The notes under the pieces: generated by a model | Seen by the model: only the letters and a program-made list of their open reading frames with translations | The model's database searches: none | What the model was told of the DNA's origin: nothing | Translations under genes and position numbers: made by a program | DNA from: Saprospiraceae bacterium | GTDB taxonomy: Bacteria > Bacteroidota > Bacteroidia > Chitinophagales > Saprospiraceae | Length of the DNA: 50,116 nt | Assembly: GCA_022841345.1 (NCBI GenBank) | Contig: JALHRR010000008.1 | Span: 96,994-147,109, forward strand | Reading direction: 5' to 3' | In this document: piece after piece, positions 10,272 to 43,786 of the stretch | Numbering within the stretch: the stretch's first letter is position 1 | Layout of the letters: each line of letters begins with the position of its first letter

Positions 10272-10643
10272 TTAAAGTGCTTTTAACTTTTCTTTCAATT
10301 GAGTGAAATCAAGCGGCTTGGTCAGAAAATCGTCCGCTCCAAGACGCATTGCTGTGTTGTAATTTTCCTCATCCCCATAAGCTGTAATCATTACAACCTT
10401 AGGCGGTGGGCTGGCTTCCTTTTCTTTTATCTTCTTCAGCAGGTCCAGACCACTCATACCCGGCATATTAATATCTGAAAGAATCAACACGGCTTCCTGT
10501 TGATGTTGTGTCAAATATTGCAGAGCTGCTTCACCTGAAAATGCAAATGCAAATTGAATTTCTTCATTTTTTATTTCCTTCCTGAATCGCTGCTCAAACA
10601 ACAATTTCACATCCTCTTCATCATCAACAACCAATACATTCAT
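10272..10643 (-). CDS. single-domain response regulator (CheY-like receiver)
   Basis: MNVLVVDDEED…LSDINMPGMSGLDLL; the start is set at the internal Met just downstream of the kinase stop, because the longer ORF overlaps the kinase. Confidence 0.8.
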   Translation of the reverse strand: MNVLVVDDEEDVKLLFEQRFRKEIKNEEIQFAFAFSGEAALQYLTQHQQEAVLILSDINMPGMSGLDLLKKIKEKEASPPPKVVMITAYGDEENYNTAMRLGADDFLTKPLDFTQLKEKLKAL

Positions 10644-23854: not shown

Positions 23855-25435
23855 TCAATGCTCGTCAGATAAATGGAAATTAATCTTGGGATGTGCCTCC
23901 TGTACTGTCCTCAAGCTCCATGCAGTTTCTGCAAGGTAGACCAGGCGGTCATGCTTGTCTCTGGCAAGATCTTTTTTTCTACGGCTGATGAATTCACGCA
24001 TAGCTTCTGCATCGGTGGATGTTACCCAGCATGCTTTATGCAAATGCACCGGTTCATAGCGGCAGGAAGCTCCATATTCATGCTCCAGTCTATATTGAAT
24101 CACATCAAACTGCAGCGCACCTACTGTGCCGATGATCTTACGGTTGTTGTCCTCTTTGGTAAACAACTGCGCCAGGCCTTCATCCATCAGCTCAAATAAT
24201 CCTTTATTTAGCTGCTTGGTTTTCATCGGATCAGCATTATTGACATACCTGAACTGTTCAGGTGAGAAACTTGGAATTCCTTTGAAGTGAAGGATTTCTC
24301 CTTCTGTCAATGTATCGCCTATTTTAAAATTACCGGAATCATACAGACCGATCACATCACCCGGATAAGCATCGTCGATAACTGATTTTTTGGAAGCCAT
24401 GAAGCTGGTGGGGTTGGAAAACTTCATGTTTTTTCCCTGTCTCACATGGTAGTAATTCGTATTTCTCTCGAACTGACCGGACACTATGCGGCAAAATGCA
24501 ATTCTGTCCCTGTGCTTTGGATCCATATTTGCGTGAATCTTGAAGATAAATCCTGAGAATTTTTCCTCTTCAGGCTTTACTACTCTTTCTTCTGTCTCGC
24601 GCTCTTTCGGAGTTGGCGCAATTTCTATAAAGCAATCCAGCAATTCTTTGACCCCGAAATTATTCACAGCACTCCCGAAGAAAACCGGGCTTAATTCTCC
24701 CGATCGGTATTTCTCCACCGTGAATTCAGGATAAACAGTTTCGATGATTTCTACCTCGCCTCTAAGTTCATCAGCAGGCTTTTCGCCAATTTTTTTATCC
24801 AGTTCAGGATCAGAAAGATCATTAAATTCGAGGATATCTTCCTCTGTTTGTTTTCCGTGAGGAGAAAACAGGCAAAGTTTTTTCTCATACATATTATACA
24901 CACCCTGAAATCGCGACCCCATGCCGATAGGCCAGGAAAGCGGTCTGACTTTAAGACCCAGTTTGGTTTCTACTTCATCGAGCAAATCCATTGCGTCAAG
25001 ACCTTCCCTGTCCATTTTATTGATGAATACAATAATGGGTGTGCTTCTCATTCTGCAGACTTCCACCAGCTTCTCAGTTTGCTCTTCCACGCCTTTTGCA
25101 ACGTCAATCACAACAATTACACTATCCACAGCAGTCAGCGTACGGAATGTATCCTCTGCAAAGTCCTTGTGACCCGGCGTATCCAGGATATTGATTTGCA
25201 GATTTTCATATTCAAATCCCATCACAGAAGTAGCCACAGAGATCCCCCTTTGCTTCTCGATTTCCATGAAGTCAGAGGTCGCGTGTTTCTTAATCTTATT
25301 GGATTTTACCGCACCTGCAGTTTGAATGGCACCACCAAACAGAAGCAATTTTTCTGTCAGGGTAGTCTTACCCGCATCGGGGTGACTGACGATCCCAAAT
25401 GTGCGTCTGCGCGCTATTTCCTGTAGTCTGTCCAT
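23855..25435 (-). CDS. prfC: peptide chain release factor 3
   Basis: RF3-typical N-terminus ([29 protein letters not shown]) and translational GTPase domains, 526 aa. Confidence 0.92.
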
Positions 25436-25574
25436 GAGTATATTGAGCTGGATTTTTAAAACGGGTGCAAAGATAGGGATTTAGGAAGGAATATATTTAC
25501 TGAGAAAAATACTGTTATATTTCAATTTGTTTTAGGCATCACCCCAAGGTTCAGAAATGGGATGATTGTATATC

Positions 25575-25735
25575 CAATCTTCACATTTCTGCATTCGCGG
25601 CTTGTCCCCAACGCCTTGGTGGATCGCTACGTTGCACCACTCGCTTTTCGCTCGGTACCCATTTACAACTCCACCACAATGCATTGGCGAAAGGCATGGG
25701 GACTGCCTCCCTTTGGACGGCATGGTTTCACATCT
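25575..25735. repeat. diverged copy of the palindromic intergenic repeat (GTCCCCAACGCCTTGGTGGA variant)
   Basis: Palindrome variant plus the CATGGGGACTGCCTCCCTTTGGACGG segment; overlapped only by short opposite-strand ORFs. Confidence 0.4.
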
Positions 25736-26265
25736 AAAGGCTGATGCAATCCCAACTTAAAAGCAACTATTAGAAAATAGAAATCCTTTGTGAAGTTGCT
25801 ACAATCCCGCCTTAGAGAATAATCCGTAAAAAATGGTTTTGAGTGAAGCGACCAAGGCTGTCACTGTGTGAGCAATATGTGAAGCCGGGCAGATATAGAG
25901 ATGACCTGTGAAAAATAAGCAGGAACAAGTAAGGCCAAAAGCGAGTTTGACAGACTTAGCGAAAGGAAAACGCATTTTTAGGATTAGGCTCTACAGCGGG
26001 AATGGTTTTTGTTTACTTTTTGCCATTTCAAAAAGTAAAAGCCCAGCCGGCTTGAGGCGAATTAGAAGTGCTAAATTCCAAAGTATTTTCAAATGAAGAA
26101 CTGAATACATTTTTTTGAAATAAGATTATCTAACAATATAATAGCCATCTTTCATGACTCTCAAGCTGTTCTTCAAAGCTTAAATATTCGGCCTCGAAGA
26201 AAATAATTCTAAGATATTTTGCTCCAGCTATTGTTTTATTCACAAAAGTGATTTAATCTTGCCAC

Positions 26266-26337
26266 ATGAAAACAAATCAATCTATGACATGTTGTTGTTG
26301 TCGTACTGCTCAGAGAGCGGTCGGGACTATGATGTGA
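26266..26337 (+). CDS. Cys-codon-rich mini-ORF 1 (putative leader peptide MKTNQSMTCCCCRTAQRAVGTMM)
   Basis: 23-codon ORF containing four consecutive Cys codons (TGT×4); its stop lies about 35 nt before an intrinsic terminator, upstream of a cysteine-biosynthesis operon. Confidence 0.4.
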   Translation: MKTNQSMTCCCCRTAQRAVGTMM

Positions 26338-26372
26338 TATAGATTAATACAATAAAATCCAGTTTCACAGAA

Positions 26373-26405
26373 AGCCCTTCCGCCAAAATGGAAGGGCTTT
26401 TTTTT
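26373..26405 (+). terminator. intrinsic terminator 1 (AGCCCTTCC–loop–GGAAGGGCT + T8)
   Basis: Perfect 9-bp GC-rich stem with an 8-nt loop followed by TTTTTTTT. Confidence 0.75.
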
Positions 26406-26425
26406 GATCCGATTGAATATAAAAA

Positions 26426-26524
26426 ATGAAAATGTTACATAAATCTTCTTGCTGTTGTCGCTGCTGTTGCCCTGACTGGCACACGGACCCTGGAGGTAAG
26501 AGACATGTAATATTTATCGAATAA
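26426..26524 (+). CDS. Cys-codon-rich mini-ORF 2 (putative leader peptide MKMLHKSSCCCRCCCPDWHTDPGGKRHVIFIE)
   Basis: 32-codon ORF with six Cys codons among seven consecutive codons (CCCRCCC); followed about 28 nt later by a second intrinsic terminator. Confidence 0.4.
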   Translation: MKMLHKSSCCCRCCCPDWHTDPGGKRHVIFIE

Positions 26525-26552
26525 TAGAATAGGTAAATTACATAGAACAAAA

Positions 26553-26587
26553 CCCTTCCGGTCCTCCCGGAGGGGTTTTTTATTTTT
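26553..26587 (+). terminator. intrinsic terminator 2 (CCCTTCCGG–TCCTC–CCGGAGGGG + T-run)
   Basis: 9-bp stem (one G·U) followed by TTTTTTATTTTT, immediately upstream of the peroxiredoxin start at 26613. Confidence 0.7.
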
Positions 26588-26612
26588 CACACCATCACAA
26601 ATCAAAATTATC

Positions 26613-27269
26613 ATGAGCGACTTACTTCAAAATTCAACTTCACTTCCAAAAATCGGCGATCCGGCACCGGATTTCACAGCCCAAACCACAAAAGGAACAT
26701 TTAAATTCAGTGAATGGCGGGCCGACAAATGGACAATCTTCTTTTCCCATCCTGCAGATTTTACTCCGGTTTGCACAACTGAATTAATAGAATTTGCCAG
26801 AGAATCTGACTGGTTTGCCGCCAGAAATACTCAGTTAATTGGTCTCAGTATTGACAGCATTCACGCACATCTTGCCTGGGTTCTTAATGTCAAAGAGAAA
26901 ACTGGAGTACTACTTGATTTTCCTTTGATTGCTGATCTCGATGGTTCCGTAGCAAATGCTTATGGCATGCTTCATCCGGGTGCCAGCTCCACTGCAACTG
27001 TACGTGCGGTTTTCATCATTGATCCGAAAGGCATTGTAAGATTATTGATCTATTATCCATTGAATATAGGACGTGGAATAGAAGAAATCAAAAGAGTGAT
27101 GGAAGCTTTACAAACCGCAGATCAATACAGTGTAGCGCTTCCTGTCAACTGGAAGAAAGGTGAAAATGTAGTGGTTCCTGCACCTAAGACACTCGCAGAA
27201 ATTGAGAAAAATGAGGCAGCAGGCTATGAAGAAAGAATTGATTTTTATTTGCAAAAAAGAAGTCTCTAA
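26613..27269 (+). CDS. 1-Cys peroxiredoxin (Prx6-like, AhpC/TSA family)
   Basis: Peroxidatic Cys motif FTPVCTTE; 218 aa with a C-terminal extension containing PVNWKKGE, typical of the 1-Cys Prx subfamily. Confidence 0.88.
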   Translation: MSDLLQNSTSLPKIGDPAPDFTAQTTKGTFKFSEWRADKWTIFFSHPADFTPVCTTELIEFARESDWFAARNTQLIGLSIDSIHAHLAWVLNVKEKTGVLLDFPLIADLDGSVANAYGMLHPGASSTATVRAVFIIDPKGIVRLLIYYPLNIGRGIEEIKRVMEALQTADQYSVALPVNWKKGENVVVPAPKTLAEIEKNEAAGYEERIDFYLQKRSL

Positions 27270-27280
27270 AGACACAAATC

Positions 27281-28213
27281 ATGGTAGCACAGCAAACAAA
27301 TCAGGGGCAATATCAGCTGCTTAAACAGCTCAATCAATTGCAAAAATTTATTGGCAATACACCATTGTATCCCATTTCAAGGGTCTGGTCCAAGCCCGGG
27401 GTGCAGGTGTATGCCAAGTTGGAGTGGTATCAGCTGGGCGGGAGTATAAAGTCCCGCCCGGCTTTCCACATCATCAAGGCTGCATTGACTGATATCAACT
27501 GGACGAGTGGAAAGCGCTTACTGGACGCCACTAGTGGGAATACCGGAATAGCTTATGCAGCCATTAGTTCCGCACTGGGATTGCCTCTGACGCTGTGTAT
27601 ACCCGAAAATGCATCCAAAGAGCGCATAGATATATTGCGTTCACACCAGACGGATCTGGTTTTTACTTCCAGATTTGAAGGGACAGATGGAGCACAGGAA
27701 GTAGCCAAAAGAATGCAGCTTGAAAAACCTGAGGAATATATCTTGCTGGATCAATATAGCAATTGCGCTAACTGGCAGGCACATATCAGGACTACTGCTC
27801 CTGAGATTTGGGCACAGACACAGGGCCAGGTTACGCACTTTGTAGCAGGGCTGGGCACCACCGGGACTGTGACAGGAACTTCAAAAGGATTGAAGGCATT
27901 CAATTCACGCATCAAAGTAATTGGTCTTCAGCCTGATTCTCCGATGCACGGATTGGAAGGCTGGAAGCATTTGGAGACTGCAATTATACCTCCGATTTAT
28001 AAGCCACAGGCACATGACGAGCTTTTGGAAATCAATACAGAAGAGGCCATTGATCTAATGAAAAAAGTAGCTATCAAGGAAGGTTTGCAAATCAGTCCTT
28101 CCAGTGCTGCCAATCTCCTTGGAGCCATCAAAGTAGCAGAAAAATTAAGTTCAGGAACGGTCGTCACCACATTTGCAGACGACGCATCCAAGTATCGTGA
28201 AATCTGGAATTAA
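27281..28213 (+). CDS. PLP-dependent cysteine synthase (CysM-like; candidate CysO-thiocarboxylate-dependent O-phosphoserine/O-acetylserine sulfhydrylase)
   Basis: Beta-substituted alanine synthase fold with a PLP-lysine motif (GGSIKSRPA) and a glycine-rich loop (GLGTTGTVTG); sits in the cluster with the sulfur carrier, JAMM protease and E1. Confidence 0.8.
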   Translation: MVAQQTNQGQYQLLKQLNQLQKFIGNTPLYPISRVWSKPGVQVYAKLEWYQLGGSIKSRPAFHIIKAALTDINWTSGKRLLDATSGNTGIAYAAISSALGLPLTLCIPENASKERIDILRSHQTDLVFTSRFEGTDGAQEVAKRMQLEKPEEYILLDQYSNCANWQAHIRTTAPEIWAQTQGQVTHFVAGLGTTGTVTGTSKGLKAFNSRIKVIGLQPDSPMHGLEGWKHLETAIIPPIYKPQAHDELLEINTEEAIDLMKKVAIKEGLQISPSSAANLLGAIKVAEKLSSGTVVTTFADDASKYREIWN

Positions 28214-28225
28214 ACAACAAACAAC

Positions 28226-28678
28226 ATGAGCACACACATTAAAACATCGACCTTGCAATTATCAGCTTCCGGACTGGAGGTGGTCAGAAAAGACGCCGTC
28301 AAAGCCTATCCGGATGAATGCTGCGGATTTCTTTTTGGCACCGAAACAGAAGGACGCAAAATCACATTAGCGGTCCCGGTGACTAATCACAAGGATGGAG
28401 ATAAAAGAAGAAGATTTGAAATTCATCCTCAGGATTATTTGAGAGCTGAACGACTTGCTGCTGAAATCGGACTGGATCTTTTGGGAGTGTACCACTCACA
28501 TCCGGAACATCCTGCACTTCCTTCATTGACCGATCTCGAAATGGCACTACCTTACTTTTCGTATGTAATCGTTTCGGTAAAATCAGGTAAAGTAGTGGAC
28601 GAGCGCTCCTGGAAACTCAATGAATCTCTGGGACTTTTTGAAGAAGAATTTATTATGCAACCTATACATTTATCGTAA
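28226..28678 (+). CDS. Mov34/MPN+ (JAMM) zinc metalloprotease, Mec+-like
   Basis: JAMM motif E…HSHPEHPALPSLTD (HxHx7Sx2D), 150 aa. Confidence 0.85.
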   Translation: MSTHIKTSTLQLSASGLEVVRKDAVKAYPDECCGFLFGTETEGRKITLAVPVTNHKDGDKRRRFEIHPQDYLRAERLAAEIGLDLLGVYHSHPEHPALPSLTDLEMALPYFSYVIVSVKSGKVVDERSWKLNESLGLFEEEFIMQPIHLS

Positions 28679-28680
28679 TC

Positions 28681-28965
28681 ATGGCAACTATTATCATACC
28701 AACACCGCTCAGAAAATTTACCGGAAATCAATCCACTTTCAAAGTGAATGATGCCGGAACAATCTCCGAAGCGATACATTCCCTGACAGATCAGTACACA
28801 GATTTAAAGAAACACGTGATAGACGAGGAGGGAAAAATCCGTTCATTCGTCAGATTGTATCTCGGCGATGAAGATGTCTCAGCATTGGATCAAAAAGCTG
28901 AAACCCGCATCAAAGAATCAGATGTGATTTCAATAGTACCTGCCATTGCGGGAGGTAAAATCTAA
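28681..28965 (+). CDS. ThiS/MoaD-family sulfur-carrier protein (CysO-like) with C-terminal Gly-Gly followed by a 2-residue extension
   Basis: 94-aa beta-grasp protein ending …VPAIAGGKI; the GG-KI terminus implies processing by the adjacent JAMM protease to expose the GG for adenylation and thiocarboxylation. Confidence 0.8.
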   Translation: MATIIIPTPLRKFTGNQSTFKVNDAGTISEAIHSLTDQYTDLKKHVIDEEGKIRSFVRLYLGDEDVSALDQKAETRIKESDVISIVPAIAGGKI

Positions 28966-28984
28966 AGACTTAAAAAACAAAAGT

Positions 28985-30124
28985 ATGTCAGACATCAAAT
29001 TTTCTCCTGAAGAACTCTCCCGATACAGCCGGCATATCATCATTCCGGAATTTAATCTGGAAGGCCAGAAAAAGTTGAAGGCAGCTAAAGTTCTGGTAAT
29101 CGGAAGCGGGGGGCTGGGAAGTCCTTTATTGCTTTATTTGGCAGCAGCCGGCGTTGGAACTATCGGAATTGTTGACTTTGATACTATCGATGACAGCAAC
29201 TTGCAAAGGCAGATTCTCTTCACAACAGATGATGTGGGAAAATTAAAAGCAAGCACTGCAGCGGAACGGATCAAAGCATTGAATCCATTCATACAGGTGA
29301 ATGTGCACAACACACATTTAACAAGTCAAAACGCTCTGGAAATCATCAAAGACTACGATGTCGTAGCAGATGGAACTGATAATTTTCCGACAAGATATTT
29401 GGTTAATGACGCTTGTGTTTTGCTGGATAAGGTAAATGTATATGCCTCCATATATCGGTTTGAAGGGCAATTGTCCGTTTTCAATCTTCCGCTCCCGGAT
29501 GGCAGGAGAGGGCCGAACTATCGGGACTTATTTCCTGAACCGCCACCTCCGGGATTAGTGCCCAGTTGTGCAGAGGGAGGAGTTTTGGGAGTGCTTCCGG
29601 GAATACTGGGCTCACTTCAGGCTGCGGAGGTCATCAAAGTAATCAGCAAAGTGGGTGAGCCATTGAGTGGAAAATTATTCACAATAGATGTGGCAGATTT
29701 TCAAACCCGAACTTTGAAAATTCACAAGCAGGAGAGTACCAAAATTGAGAAACTAATAGATTATGAATTATTCTGTGGACTAAAAAATGAAAATATGAGC
29801 AGCGAAGTAAAAGAAATAACGGTTGGACAACTGGCAGAATGGATTGAATCAGGCAAAGATTTTCAGTTGATCGATGTCAGAGAACCCCATGAATATGAGA
29901 TTGCGGAGATAGGCGGATTACTCATCCCATTGGCGCAAGTAATAGAAAATGCAGACAAAATATCGCAGGAAAAGCCGGTGGTCATCCACTGCAGAAGTGG
30001 TGTAAGAAGTGCAAAGGCGATCAGAGAATTGCAGGAATTGCATGGATGGGATCATCTGTACAATCTGAAAGGCGGCATTCTTGCCTGGGCTGATGAGATT
30101 GATCAGCTGGTTACGAAATATTGA
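28985..30124 (+). CDS. MoeZ-type E1: ThiF/MoeB adenylyltransferase fused to a C-terminal rhodanese domain
   Basis: Nucleotide-binding GSGGLGSP motif and two CxxC-like pairs in the E1 domain; C-terminal rhodanese with the active-site loop IHCRSGVRS; start taken at MSDIKFSPEEL (28985), downstream of the cysO stop. Confidence 0.85.
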   Translation: MSDIKFSPEELSRYSRHIIIPEFNLEGQKKLKAAKVLVIGSGGLGSPLLLYLAAAGVGTIGIVDFDTIDDSNLQRQILFTTDDVGKLKASTAAERIKALNPFIQVNVHNTHLTSQNALEIIKDYDVVADGTDNFPTRYLVNDACVLLDKVNVYASIYRFEGQLSVFNLPLPDGRRGPNYRDLFPEPPPPGLVPSCAEGGVLGVLPGILGSLQAAEVIKVISKVGEPLSGKLFTIDVADFQTRTLKIHKQESTKIEKLIDYELFCGLKNENMSSEVKEITVGQLAEWIESGKDFQLIDVREPHEYEIAEIGGLLIPLAQVIENADKISQEKPVVIHCRSGVRSAKAIRELQELHGWDHLYNLKGGILAWADEIDQLVTKY

Positions 30125-30292: not shown

Positions 30293-30567
30293 CAAAGTTG
30301 ATGTAAGGAAAGAGTTTGTTCAAAGAAACTAATCCGTTAGGGTCGGAGTAGATAAGTATTTTTTATAAAGTTATGTTGATCTGTGAATTTTTGGTAGAAG
30401 GAGTTCTTCAATGGAAGGGCTCCTTTTTAAGAAGGCAAGAATGGGTTAAGGTTGATTAGAATTAAAAGGTTTAAGCCAAGCTAAATAGAAAGCATTTTTC
30501 ATAAATAACTGAAGATGTTTTGTAACAATAAATAATGTTTCTATATTTGGAAACCCATTGCAAGAAT

Positions 30568-30945
30568 ATGGCAAATATGGAAAAACCTATTGAAGTAATA
30601 TTCCTGAAACAGGCAGAAGAATTTACAGAGTCTATTGAAGAAAATCCCAAAAAGAAACTATTTCAGGCAATCCGAAAAACCAAAGAACGATTATTCGGAC
30701 AATGGTTTACTAAATTGAAAAGTAGTGACGGTATATTTGAGTTTCGAGTGGATGACAGTGGAAAATTTTATCGGCTTTTTGCATTTTGGGATACAGAAGA
30801 AGACGAAGAGACCTTGGTTGTGGCTACTCATGGCCTAATCAAAAAGACCAATAAAACACCACAATCGGAAATTCGGAAAGCAGAGCAGATAAAACGGGAC
30901 TACTTCGAAGAAAAGAAAAATGATAAAAAGAATAAATCAAAGTAA
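30568..30945 (+). CDS. type II toxin, RelE/ParE superfamily (HigB-like / phage Gp49-like addiction-module killer)
   Basis: The motif series IFEFRVDDSGKFYRLFAFWDTEE…LVVATHGLIKKTNKTPQSEIRKAEQIKRDY is characteristic of the Gp49/HigB-type toxin family, and an HTH antitoxin lies immediately downstream; start at MANMEKP. Confidence 0.7.
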   Translation: MANMEKPIEVIFLKQAEEFTESIEENPKKKLFQAIRKTKERLFGQWFTKLKSSDGIFEFRVDDSGKFYRLFAFWDTEEDEETLVVATHGLIKKTNKTPQSEIRKAEQIKRDYFEEKKNDKKNKSK

Positions 30946-30951
30946 ATAGCA

Positions 30952-31275
30952 ATGGCAACAAAAAAATATAAAACATTAGGTGAACTGGAAGATAGATTTT
31001 TCGGTGAACGTGGCACTTCTGTGAGAGAACAATATGAATTTGAACTCAGCATGGAGATATTGGGAGAAAAACTCAAGCAAATCCGGAAAGAAAAGCAATT
31101 GACCCAGGATGAGTTGGGGAAATTAATAGGAGTTCAAAAAGCCCAGATTTCAAAACTGGAGAACGGAGCAAGCAGTGCGACAGTTTCGACCATTTTGAAA
31201 GTGTTCAAAGCATTAAATGCCAAAGTGAAATTCCAGATTGAGATAGAAGATGGATACCAATTGGCCGTTTCATGA
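30952..31275 (+). CDS. HigA-like antitoxin, XRE-family HTH protein
   Basis: 107 aa with an HTH_3 motif (LTQDELGKLIGVQKAQISKLENG); starts 7 nt after the toxin. Confidence 0.75.
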   Translation: MATKKYKTLGELEDRFFGERGTSVREQYEFELSMEILGEKLKQIRKEKQLTQDELGKLIGVQKAQISKLENGASSATVSTILKVFKALNAKVKFQIEIEDGYQLAVS

Positions 31276-31836: not shown

Positions 31837-32940
31837 ATGGCAAAATACATTTACGAACATAAAAACTGGCCAGACTTTACCTGGGATGATAAAGTCATCA
31901 ATTCGGTATTTGGTGAAGTTCGCTTAATGCAGGGCAAAATCATTGGACAAATGAACGCTCTTGGGTTTTCTGCTAAAGAGGAAGCGACACTGAACGCTTT
32001 GACCTTAGACATCGTCAAATCATCTGAAATAGAAGGCGAATTGCTCAACTATGATCAGGTACGTTCATCCATTGCAAGACGCCTAGGAATCAACACTGCA
32101 GGGCTTGTACCGGGTAGCCGGCACATAGAAGGCATTGTAGAAATGATGCTGGATGCTACTCAACGCTACAAATTACCTATAACCGAAAAACGTTTGTGTG
32201 GTTGGCACGCAGCACTTTTTCCCACAGGATATAGCGGGCCTTACAAGATAGAAGTGGGTAGATATCGTACAGGTGAAATGCAGGTAGTTTCCGGAGCCAT
32301 GGGTAAAGAAAAAGTACATTACGAAGCAGTAAAACCTGCACTTGTAAAAGCGGAAATGGACAAATTAATAAATTGGTTCAACAATGACACTACACTTGAT
32401 CCTGTGCTAAAAGCTGCCATCGCTCACTTTTGGTTTATCATCATCCACCCCTTTGATGACGGAAACGGCCGGATTGCCAGGGCTATAAGCGATATGTTGC
32501 TTGCCCGTTCCGAAAATAGTGGCGAACGATTTTACAGTATGTCTAACCAAATTTTAGCAGAACGCAAACGCTATTACGAAATATTGCAAAAAGTACAACA
32601 CAGCTCAGGCGACATTACCGGATGGATCGAATGGTTTTTACATTGCCTGAAAAACGCAATACTTGCCACCGAACAAACGACACAAAAAATATTGCGTAAA
32701 GCTGAATTTTGGAAGCGGCATGAACAGACATCCATCAACGAACGACAGCGCATTATGCTCAACAAACTTTTTGACGGATTTGAAGGGAAATTGCAAACCT
32801 CCAAATGGGCAAAAATCACCAAAACCTCTACTGATACCGCATTACGGGATATAAAAGACCTGATAGAAAAAGGTATTTTACAACAAACAGACGAAGGTGG
32901 GCGAAGCGTTAATTATGAATTGACAGACTTTAAACGTTAG
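31837..32940 (+). CDS. Fic-family protein (class II, AMPylation-type) with C-terminal winged-helix domain
   Basis: Complete Fic motif HPFDDGNGRIARA; N-terminal inhibitory-helix motif SSEIEG ([ST]xxxE[GN]) upstream of the core. Confidence 0.88.
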   Translation: MAKYIYEHKNWPDFTWDDKVINSVFGEVRLMQGKIIGQMNALGFSAKEEATLNALTLDIVKSSEIEGELLNYDQVRSSIARRLGINTAGLVPGSRHIEGIVEMMLDATQRYKLPITEKRLCGWHAALFPTGYSGPYKIEVGRYRTGEMQVVSGAMGKEKVHYEAVKPALVKAEMDKLINWFNNDTTLDPVLKAAIAHFWFIIIHPFDDGNGRIARAISDMLLARSENSGERFYSMSNQILAERKRYYEILQKVQHSSGDITGWIEWFLHCLKNAILATEQTTQKILRKAEFWKRHEQTSINERQRIMLNKLFDGFEGKLQTSKWAKITKTSTDTALRDIKDLIEKGILQQTDEGGRSVNYELTDFKR

Positions 32941-43106: not shown

Positions 43107-43786
43107 GTCATGCTGATAATTTTTCCATCCATCATTTCTATTACATTATCACTTTGAGCTGCAATATCCAGATCATGCGTTACAGTGATTATTGTCTGCC
43201 CATTTTCATGGGCCAATTTCATGAAAATATCGACAATACTGCGACTATTATTTTGGTCAAGATTTCCGGTGGGTTCGTCTCCCATGATAATGGACGGATC
43301 ATTGATCAATGCTCTTGCAATTGCGACTCTCTGTTGCTGTCCTCCGGATAATTTGGAAGCTGGTTTCAGAGCGTGTTCTGCCATATCAACAAGTTTAAGT
43401 TTGGCATAAGCTCTGTCCTCTATTTCTGAACCGGAATATTTTCCCAATCTCATTGCAGGAAGCATGATGTTTTTCAGCACAGAAAATTCAGGCAAAAGAA
43501 AGTGAAATTGAAACACAAATCCCAGGTGTTCATTTCTGAATCTTGCCAGTTCATTCTGACTTTGTCCGGTGACCACTTTTCCATTGAGCTCCAGTGTTCC
43601 CTGGTAGTCGGTGTCCATTGTAGACAAGATATACAACAAGGTAGATTTGCCACATCCTGACTTGCCGATGATGCTGTAAAACTTTGATTTCTCTATTTCA
43701 AATGAAATGTCCTTCAGAACTTCGAAAGTTACAGGATCATGAAATGACTTGGTGATATGATTGGCCTTGAGTGCTAAAGTTGACAT
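43103..43786 (-). CDS. ABC transporter ATP-binding protein (MacB/LolD-like)
   Basis: Walker A GKSGCGKST, signature LSGGQQQRVAIARAL, Walker B IIMGDEPTGNLD. Confidence 0.9.
   Translation of the reverse strand: MSTLALKANHITKSFHDPVTFEVLKDISFEIEKSKFYSIIGKSGCGKSTLLYILSTMDTDYQGTLELNGKVVTGQSQNELARFRNEHLGFVFQFHFLLPEFSVLKNIMLPAMRLGKYSGSEIEDRAYAKLKLVDMAEHALKPASKLSGGQQQRVAIARALINDPSIIMGDEPTGNLDQNNSRSIVDIFMKLAHENGQTIITVTHDLDIAAQSDNVIEMMDGKIISMT

Follow-up and report, generated by a model that had tools for sequence, protein, structure and literature searches.

Classical leader-peptide attenuators (trp, his, leu, thr, ilv, and pheA, as well as Bacteroid-trp, RF01692) follow the Yanofsky model. A short open reading frame (ORF) with a run of codons for the end product lies upstream of the biosynthetic operon, and the pairing regions 1:2, 2:3, and 3:4 end in an intrinsic terminator. 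For cysteine, leaders of several kinds have been reported. Seliverstov et al. (2005, PMC1262725) predicted that actinobacterial cys operons are preceded by Cys-rich leader peptides, with no terminators. Leaderless poly-Cys ORFs give cysteine-responsive control in Mycobacterium smegmatis by a translational mechanism, described as the "Cys ribulon" (Canestrari et al. 2020, 10.1101/834739). In Rhodobacterales, a two-Cys-codon upstream ORF followed by a terminator, uORFC-8-2, is located upstream of cysS (Brewer et al. 2021, PMC8632094). Tandem attenuators are known from Salmonella mgtCBR, where two short ORFs sense different signals (PMC3641672). Here, we analyzed a 50,116-nucleotide stretch of DNA from a Saprospiraceae bacterium (contig JALHRR010000008.1; hereafter, the window), in which two short ORFs with runs of Cys codons, each followed by its own intrinsic terminator, precede a cysteine-biosynthesis operon. 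A first-pass annotation of this DNA had read the pair as candidate cysteine-sensing leader-peptide attenuators and had called such attenuators essentially undescribed. The latter statement was too strong, as the three cysteine precedents show. The core reading is supported by conservation, by terminators and antiterminators that change together, and by a conserved tandem layout.

We consider it highly probable that this region of the window comprises two ribosome-mediated transcription attenuators in series, which sense charged tRNA-Cys and gate the cysteine-biosynthesis operon. With the classical attenuators it shares the short ORF carrying a run of end-product codons, the position upstream of a biosynthetic operon, and an intrinsic terminator; the pairings 1:2 and 2:3 that lead up to it are predicted here. 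It differs from them in using cysteine as the regulatory amino acid, in having two serial units, and in a first ORF that is predicted to open the transcript. The Bacteroid-trp model scored 21 bits on the window leader, compared to a gathering score of 49. The mycobacterial polycysteine ORFs are likewise unannotated poly-Cys mini-ORFs that stand first, at the 5' end, in operons of cysteine metabolism; ribosome stalling makes them sensors of Cys-tRNA, as we propose for the window, and they are leaderless, as is predicted here. However, the mycobacterial element that was dissected acts on translation by exposing a Shine-Dalgarno sequence that is otherwise sequestered, and terminators were not found there, whereas each window unit has a canonical terminator and an antiterminator. 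The phylum is also a different one, and the Bacteroidota element probably arose independently of the mycobacterial one. uORFC-8-2, which is known from prediction only, is also a ribosome-mediated transcription attenuator with Cys codons in the first stem and a terminator with a U-run. It is a single alphaproteobacterial unit with two adjacent Cys codons near codons 14 to 15 and controls cysteinyl-tRNA synthetase, whereas the window has runs of four to six codons, a peroxiredoxin (Prx) gene and cysM downstream, and a Saprospiraceae host. Two serial sensing modules are shared with mgtCBR, but the signals of the latter differ, while both window units would read the same one and each has its own terminator.

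Sequence features, conservation, helix covariation, and alternative folds were computed here. The leader of the window contains the following elements.

26266 to 26337, plus strand: leader ORF 1, 23 codons, product MKTNQSMTCCCCRTAQRAVGTMM, with TGT ×4 at 26290 to 26301.
26371 to 26405, plus strand: intrinsic terminator 1 (regions 3:4), AAAGCCCTTCCG/CCAAAA/TGGAAGGGCTTT followed by T8; 12-bp stem, 6-nt loop, -18.2 kcal/mol.
26426 to 26524, plus strand: leader ORF 2, 32 codons, product MKMLHKSSCCCRCCCPDWHTDPGGKRHVIFIE; alternative start at 26432.
26549 to 26587, plus strand: intrinsic terminator 2, AAAACCCTTCCGG/TCCTC/CCGGAGGGGTTTT and then TTATTTTT; -19.5 kcal/mol.

Both mini-ORFs were present as first described, the 23-codon ORF with its four TGT codons and the 32-codon ORF with six Cys codons arranged as CCCRCCC (26450 to 26470). 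The expected distance of about 30 to 35 nt between ORF and terminator held for the first unit, in which terminator 1 begins 33 nt after the stop codon; terminator 2 is slightly nearer to its ORF, at 24 to 25 nt. The half-stem that the two hairpins had been said to share is CCCTTCCG, which occurs in each of them. The second U-run ends about 25 nt ahead of the Prx start codon at 26613, again as noted earlier. ORF2 starts only 20 nt past the U-run of terminator 1 and can thus be reached only by read-through. Since prfC, the gene upstream, is encoded on the opposite strand, the hairpins are not terminators of the upstream gene. A consensus scan of positions 25400 to 27000 returned eight terminator-like sites, compared to 1.3 ± 1.5 in shuffled sequences, and the leader region folded far more stably than its shuffled counterparts (z = -5.7). 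ORF1 and ORF2 are the only short Cys-run mini-ORFs of this type in the window. The sole further match of the scan was a 62-amino-acid ORF with three consecutive Cys residues at 43221 to 43409, which has no terminator context.

From these features, we infer translation of the ORFs, the transcription start site, a response to cysteine, and an effect of the tandem, and the following sequence of events would apply. Transcription probably starts at the ORF1 start codon or a few nucleotides from it. With smooth translation through the Cys codons, or with no translation at all, region 1, which lies just past the Cys codons, would pair with region 2. This would leave the terminator (regions 3:4) free to form, and RNA polymerase would stop. 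When Cys-tRNA is scarce, the ribosome would stall on the four Cys codons of unit 1 or the six of unit 2 and cover region 1. Region 2 could then pair with the 5' arm of the terminator to form the antiterminator, allowing the polymerase to read through. Placing two terminators in series would be expected to lower the basal level and to steepen the response.

Related loci were collected by a CysM protein scan using one genome per GTDB species. This yielded 80 loci with 51 to 64% CysM identity from Saprospiraceae, Chitinophagales, Cytophagales, Flavobacteriales, Balneolaceae, and others, 77 of which had enough upstream sequence to be evaluated. One of them, L001, is a near-identical relative and places the window in Saprospiraceae. 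The loci examined also include the cultured carrier Flexithrix dorotheae DSM 6795 (L004) and a Chitinophaga pinensis locus (L066) from a metagenome-assembled genome. ATG-started mini-ORFs with runs of three to eight Cys codons were found upstream of cysM, and on its strand, in 66 of the 77 loci. Six more carried Cys runs without an ATG and five carried none, so that 72 had a Cys run of some kind. The density of mini-ORFs with at least four consecutive Cys codons was 2.02 per kb within the 450 nt preceding cysM, compared to 0.0136 per kb elsewhere in the related loci, both strands counted, an enrichment of about 150-fold. The resulting family set comprised 93 units, drawn from 66 species-level genomes and the window. 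A strong hairpin followed by a U-run was present in 89 of these 93 units, with a median distance of 62 nt (range, 39 to 84) from the end of the Cys run and of 26 nt from the stop codon. The question raised by the first-pass annotation, whether Cys-run mini-ORFs are conserved upstream of cysM homologues, was thereby answered in the affirmative.

A covariance model built without the window and without its closest genome (L001) found its top matches in the window at 26281 to 26408 (73.1 bits) and 26438 to 26586 (50.5 bits), the next best match reaching 23 bits. A weak match of the model at 10486 to 10576 was dismissed after inspection. Comparison with L001 showed an identical ORF2 (100%) between spacers that differ, and a compensatory A-U to G-C change in terminator 2. 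The sole difference in region 2 of unit 1 falls in a predicted internal loop. A metagenome scan with the Prx protein for closer relatives of the window leaders returned two distant loci, both without the leader.

In four loci from Microscillaceae and Cytophagaceae (L009, L010, L021, and L056), double Cys runs, e.g., AAACCCCVAVACCCMP, were observed about 210 to 440 nt upstream of cysM, in an open frame without an upstream ATG. A start codon other than ATG, or another type of leader, may be in use at these loci.

The conserved mini-ORFs could instead give rise to small Cys-rich peptides with a function of their own, be they metal- or redox-binding peptides or precursors of ribosomally synthesized and posttranslationally modified peptides (RiPPs), with the hairpins serving as their terminators. 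The peptides are indeed very rich in Cys, and the operon contains a peroxiredoxin and sulfur-transfer proteins. Outside the Cys run, however, conservation was confined to codons that form RNA pairing segments; the recurring motif TIP..RKGG, for instance, reflects the RNA segments CCAUUCC and GGAAAGG. The peptides range in length from 15 to more than 40 residues and their Cys runs from three to eight, there was no Pfam or NCBIfam match to the peptides, and no maturation or export genes lie near the locus. The units are always found directly upstream of cysM operons, together with a terminator at fixed distance and a complementary antiterminator. We therefore regard a peptide function, which the first-pass annotation had listed as an alternative in both its metal-binding and its RiPP form, as unsupported and exceedingly improbable.

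The reading frame of the repeat was evaluated using 88 unselected (TGY)≥4 runs. In the Cys frame, an in-frame ATG preceded any stop codon in 94% of the runs, at a median of nine codons upstream. The corresponding values were 33% for the Leu frame (YTG) and 14% for the Val/Ala frame (GYT), and both of these readings were rejected.

An overlapping ORF in the +2 frame was observed at 26288 to 26341. Its ATG uses the last base before the Cys run, its product is MLLLSYCSESGRDYDVI, and the TGT repeat is read as Leu codons. Such an overlap with the Cys run recurs in about one third of the units; the family statistics favor the Cys frame.

A candidate promoter of the Bacteroidetes type (TTG, a spacer of about 20 nt, and a TAnnTTTG-like box) precedes ORF1.

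26231 to 26261, plus strand: predicted Bacteroidetes-type sigma-A promoter; -33 TTG at 26231 to 26233, -7 box TAATCTTG at 26254 to 26261, matching TAnnTTTG with one mismatch.

The box TAATCTTG ends 4 nt before the ORF1 ATG. In Flavobacterium psychrophilum, the promoter box occupies positions -12 to -5 (PMC9723704), which places the predicted transcription start of the window at or next to A26266 of the ORF1 start codon. The mRNA is thus predicted to be leaderless or nearly so at ORF1. Across the family, a box ending 4 to 11 nt before the ATG was found in 36 of 67 first or only units, compared to 2.5% of all ATGs and none of 26 second units. Homology with L001 picks up again at 26227, right at the predicted promoter. 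Unit 2 lacks a separate promoter, and transcription of the operon would therefore require that both terminators be bypassed.

These data also bear on the possibility of an untranslated RNA switch, in which the UGY repeats and hairpins would be the binding site of a protein (as with TRAP or PyrR) or of a metabolite, and this binding would control the terminators. Proteins are able to bind triplet repeats, terminators and antiterminators would operate by the same logic, and translation of the ORFs is a prediction. Nevertheless, the contiguous triplets share a frame with an ATG far more often than either other frame does (94% versus 14 to 33%), the stop codon falls shortly before the terminator, and the promoter puts the predicted transcript start at the ATG. 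The repeat number varies from three to eight and single-codon interruptions (R, S, T, or A) are tolerated, and no match to a riboswitch or protein-binding leader of Rfam was obtained. On this evidence, we consider an untranslated switch very unlikely.

The serial arrangement of the proposed attenuators is itself conserved. Two complete units were found in 24 other loci, mostly from Saprospiraceae. The second unit was richer in Cys codons than the first in 22 of the 25 tandem cases, which are phylogenetically nonindependent, with means of 4.2 and 5.7 codons for the first and second units, respectively. In the 21 cases with an unambiguous start, the second ORF began 15 to 67 nt past the first hairpin; the other four had overlapping, extended ORFs.

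For the analysis of helices, 85 units were aligned with MAFFT, the window and L001 being excluded. The consensus order was the Cys run, ACCATTCC, GGAAGGG, a spacer, AAAGCCTTTCC, a loop, and GGAAAGGCTTTTTT. The terminator helix was 95.4% paired across the family and showed compensatory changes at 11 of 11 pairs, a result reached by none of 500 shuffles. Region 2, the segment complementary to the 5' arm of the terminator, started at a median of 13 nt past the last Cys codon. In a simple duplex test, its pairing with that arm was better than in dinucleotide shuffles in 66% of the units (P ≤ 0.05). In a swap test that requires no alignment, region 2 paired with its own terminator arm 2.5 kcal better on average than with arms of a different core. 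Rare terminator cores (CCUCACC, CCAUUCC, CAGUCGG, CUGCCGG, and CUUCUC) were matched by the complementary region 2 in the same lineages. Regions 2 and 3 covary, as an antiterminator requires.

In the window, the pairing segments are located as follows.

26279 to 26345, plus strand: unit 1 anti-antiterminator hairpin (regions 1:2), from minimum-energy folds; 5' arm 26279 to 26311 (Cys codons and CGTACTGCTC), 3' arm 26315 to 26345 (contains region 2).
26317 to 26327, plus strand: unit 1 region 2, GCGGTCGGGAC; pairs with the terminator 5' arm GCCCTTCCGC to give the antiterminator.
26441 to 26454, plus strand: unit 2 region 1, AAATCTTCTTGCTG; in the unstalled fold, the partner of region 2 plus its extension.
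26485 to 26502, plus strand: unit 2 region 2, GGACCCTGGAGG plus TAAGAG.

Ribosome-free folds of the leader paired the Cys-codon region with region 2, and the terminator formed. Constrained folds were calculated with a ribosome footprint on any of the Cys codons and with the transcript ended ahead of the 3' arm of the terminator. Under these constraints, GCGG..GGG.AC of unit 1 (26317 to 26327) paired with GC.CCC..CCGC of the terminator arm. GGACC..GGAGG of unit 2 (26485 to 26496) paired with CCTTC.GGTCC, which spans the 5' arm and loop of terminator 2, and this antiterminator was seen in every stalled-ribosome fold. The stalled-state gain, i.e., the energy gained once the RNA outside the stalled ribosome is extended by the terminator 5' arm, was significant (P ≤ 0.05) in 72% of the units of the family. 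It amounted to -14.4 kcal for unit 1, compared to -4.1 ± 2.4 in shuffles (z = -4.2), and to -11.4 kcal for unit 2, compared to -6.1 ± 2.9 (z = -1.8, P = 0.035). Alternative antiterminator folds, which had been suggested as a check on the attenuator reading, were therefore found in both units, and they change together with the terminator.

Several results weigh against two cysteine-sensing attenuators and should be set beside this support. The cysteine dependence of the family members is deduced from their sequences, and the loci are kin, so that counts across them are not independent events. In the simple duplex test, the window units taken alone were not significant (P = 0.09 and 0.40). Counts in fixed columns of the MAFFT alignment were weak both for the antiterminator (73% paired versus 70.9% in shuffles) and for helix 1:2 (61.7% versus 58.7%), since the register of region 2 shifts between lineages; it was for this reason that the alignment-free swap test was used. 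In leaders folded without their terminator, region 2 paired into the Cys run or the next 12 nt, the zone under a stalled ribosome, in 82 of 89 units, a count made without a null model; both window units showed the same pairing. The terminator was always present in the full-length minimum-energy fold, and the model consequently relies on cotranscriptional kinetics, as all attenuators do. Finally, the stop codon of unit 2 lies 26 nt beyond region 2. A terminating ribosome would therefore leave region 2 unmasked, and re-formation of helix 1:2 is assumed.

Sensing by stalling on Cys codons could also be combined with a different output, namely, translational control of the first gene or Rho-dependent polarity, the hairpins acting mainly as stabilizers or pause sites. 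The one Cys attenuator that has been dissected by experiment works through translation (10.1101/834739), and terminator 2 ends only about 25 nt ahead of the Prx start codon. In each unit, however, a canonical GC-rich stem with a U-run is found, covarying and conserved at a fixed distance. The distance between unit 1 and the nearest start of a structural gene exceeds 200 nt, so that this unit cannot act on translation initiation of the operon. Moreover, Bacteroidota do not use Shine-Dalgarno sequences, so that there is none to sequester (PMC9723704). Control by these other routes is thus very unlikely, and transcription attenuation at the two terminators remains our preferred explanation.

To place the element among described families, the whole window was searched against Rfam at the gathering threshold, which gave no matches. 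At E ≤ 10, positions 26150 to 26700 gave only subthreshold matches driven by the terminators. The leader peptides matched no Pfam or NCBIfam model, and an exact look-up of eight of them among 15 billion proteins found none. No literature on a cysteine attenuator in Bacteroidota was found in a search that did not cover subscription-only papers, the precedents being actinobacterial and from Rhodobacterales only. The design appears not to have been described previously for this phylum. Its mechanism would be that of a classical leader-peptide attenuator, and it goes somewhat beyond the standard design in that the series arrangement is conserved and the first ORF is predicted to be leaderless.

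An additional poly-Cys mini-ORF, e.g., MNQYTQTMMCCCCCPPRQPDRYWCM, was found downstream of the cysM operon in three loci (L041, 7267 to 7344; L060, 7232 to 7309; and L068, 7242 to 7319). In L041, the only one of the three that is annotated, it directly precedes a gene for a pyridoxal phosphate (PLP) enzyme of Cys/Met metabolism. These extra units, which recall the several loci per genome of the mycobacterial ORFs, suggest a multilocus cysteine regulon.

Taking the family as a whole, we give roughly even chances to a broader proposition: a phylum-wide and independently evolved "cysteine ribulon" of Bacteroidota, in which the CysO-type pathway is controlled by leaderless poly-Cys mini-ORFs with intrinsic terminators, as is a Cys/Met PLP enzyme in some of the lineages. 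Serial attenuators with graded numbers of Cys codons would then form a two-stage ultrasensitive gate in Saprospiraceae and several further lineages. Tandem riboswitches and T-boxes place two sensing modules in series within one leader, which makes the output dependent on both. The tandem of the window is nearer to tandem same-ligand riboswitches than to mgtCBR, but it would be ribosome based. If the proposition is true, the gate would be the ribosome-based counterpart of tandem riboswitches and convergent with the leaderless poly-Cys ORFs of mycobacteria.

The attenuators proposed for the window would be the first clear example of a cysteine-biosynthesis operon that is attenuated in the classical, terminator-based way through cysteine codons, and they would explain how the little-studied CysO/CysM pathway is regulated in a large group of Bacteroidota. 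Being well defined, the element could enter RNA family libraries and genome annotation, from which the leader ORFs are now missing. The tandem design, with more Cys codons in unit 2, would offer a simple natural system for the response curves of serial attenuators. As the mechanism is a textbook one, these findings would extend known biology and overturn none of it.

The operon behind the leaders makes or handles the amino acid that would be sensed, with a CysM-like synthase, a JAB protease, a ThiS-fold carrier, and a MoeZ-like enzyme. Its composition, originally given as peroxiredoxin, cysteine synthase, JAMM, CysO, and MoeZ, was confirmed by Pfam and NCBIfam.

26613 to 27269, plus strand: 1-Cys peroxiredoxin, the first structural gene; Pfam AhpC-TSA and 1-cysPrx_C, NCBIfam NF009668 above cutoff.
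27281 to 28213, plus strand: CysM-like cysteine synthase (PLP enzyme); Pfam/NCBIfam family match, below the NCBIfam equivalog cutoff.
28226 to 28678, plus strand: JAB/Mec-like metalloprotease; Pfam Prok-JAB.
28681 to 28965, plus strand: ThiS/MoaD-fold sulfur carrier (CysO-like); Pfam ThiS, NCBIfam SAMP1/MoaD-family match.
28946 to 30124, plus strand: MoeZ-like adenylyltransferase/sulfurtransferase; ThiF and rhodanese domains (Pfam and NCBIfam), start codon uncertain.

Because the synthase missed the equivalog cutoff, the name CysM-like rests on the family match and the operon context. The same operon, with or without the peroxiredoxin, was found behind the leaders in the related loci that were checked. 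A Prx gene, confirmed by Pfam, also lies 3' of the leader in L041, and the ORF between leader and cysM in L007 carries the 1-cysPrx_C domain only. In L060, L061, and L068, the spacing from leader to cysM resembles that of L041, and the intervening ORF is unannotated.

Upstream of the leader promoter, about 790 nt that separate it from prfC (25436 to 26227) contain no clear gene, and only parts of this sequence are common to L001. Within it, a segment of about 280 bp (25791 to 26068; 2229 to 2504 in L001) is inverted relative to that genome at 85% identity, between two flanks that are collinear. The segment is bordered by short imperfect inverted repeats (25769 to 25779 and 26084 to 26094), and a hairpin with a T-run lies on its minus strand at 26053 to 26039. 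Neither a convincing ORF nor an Rfam match was obtained for it. Immediately past the cysteine operon, at 30535 to 31275, genes for a Gp49/HigB-like protein and a Cro/C1-type helix-turn-helix protein are adjacent, and the pair is probably a toxin-antitoxin module. Farther downstream, positions 31837 to 32940 encode a protein with DUF4172 and Fic/DOC domains.

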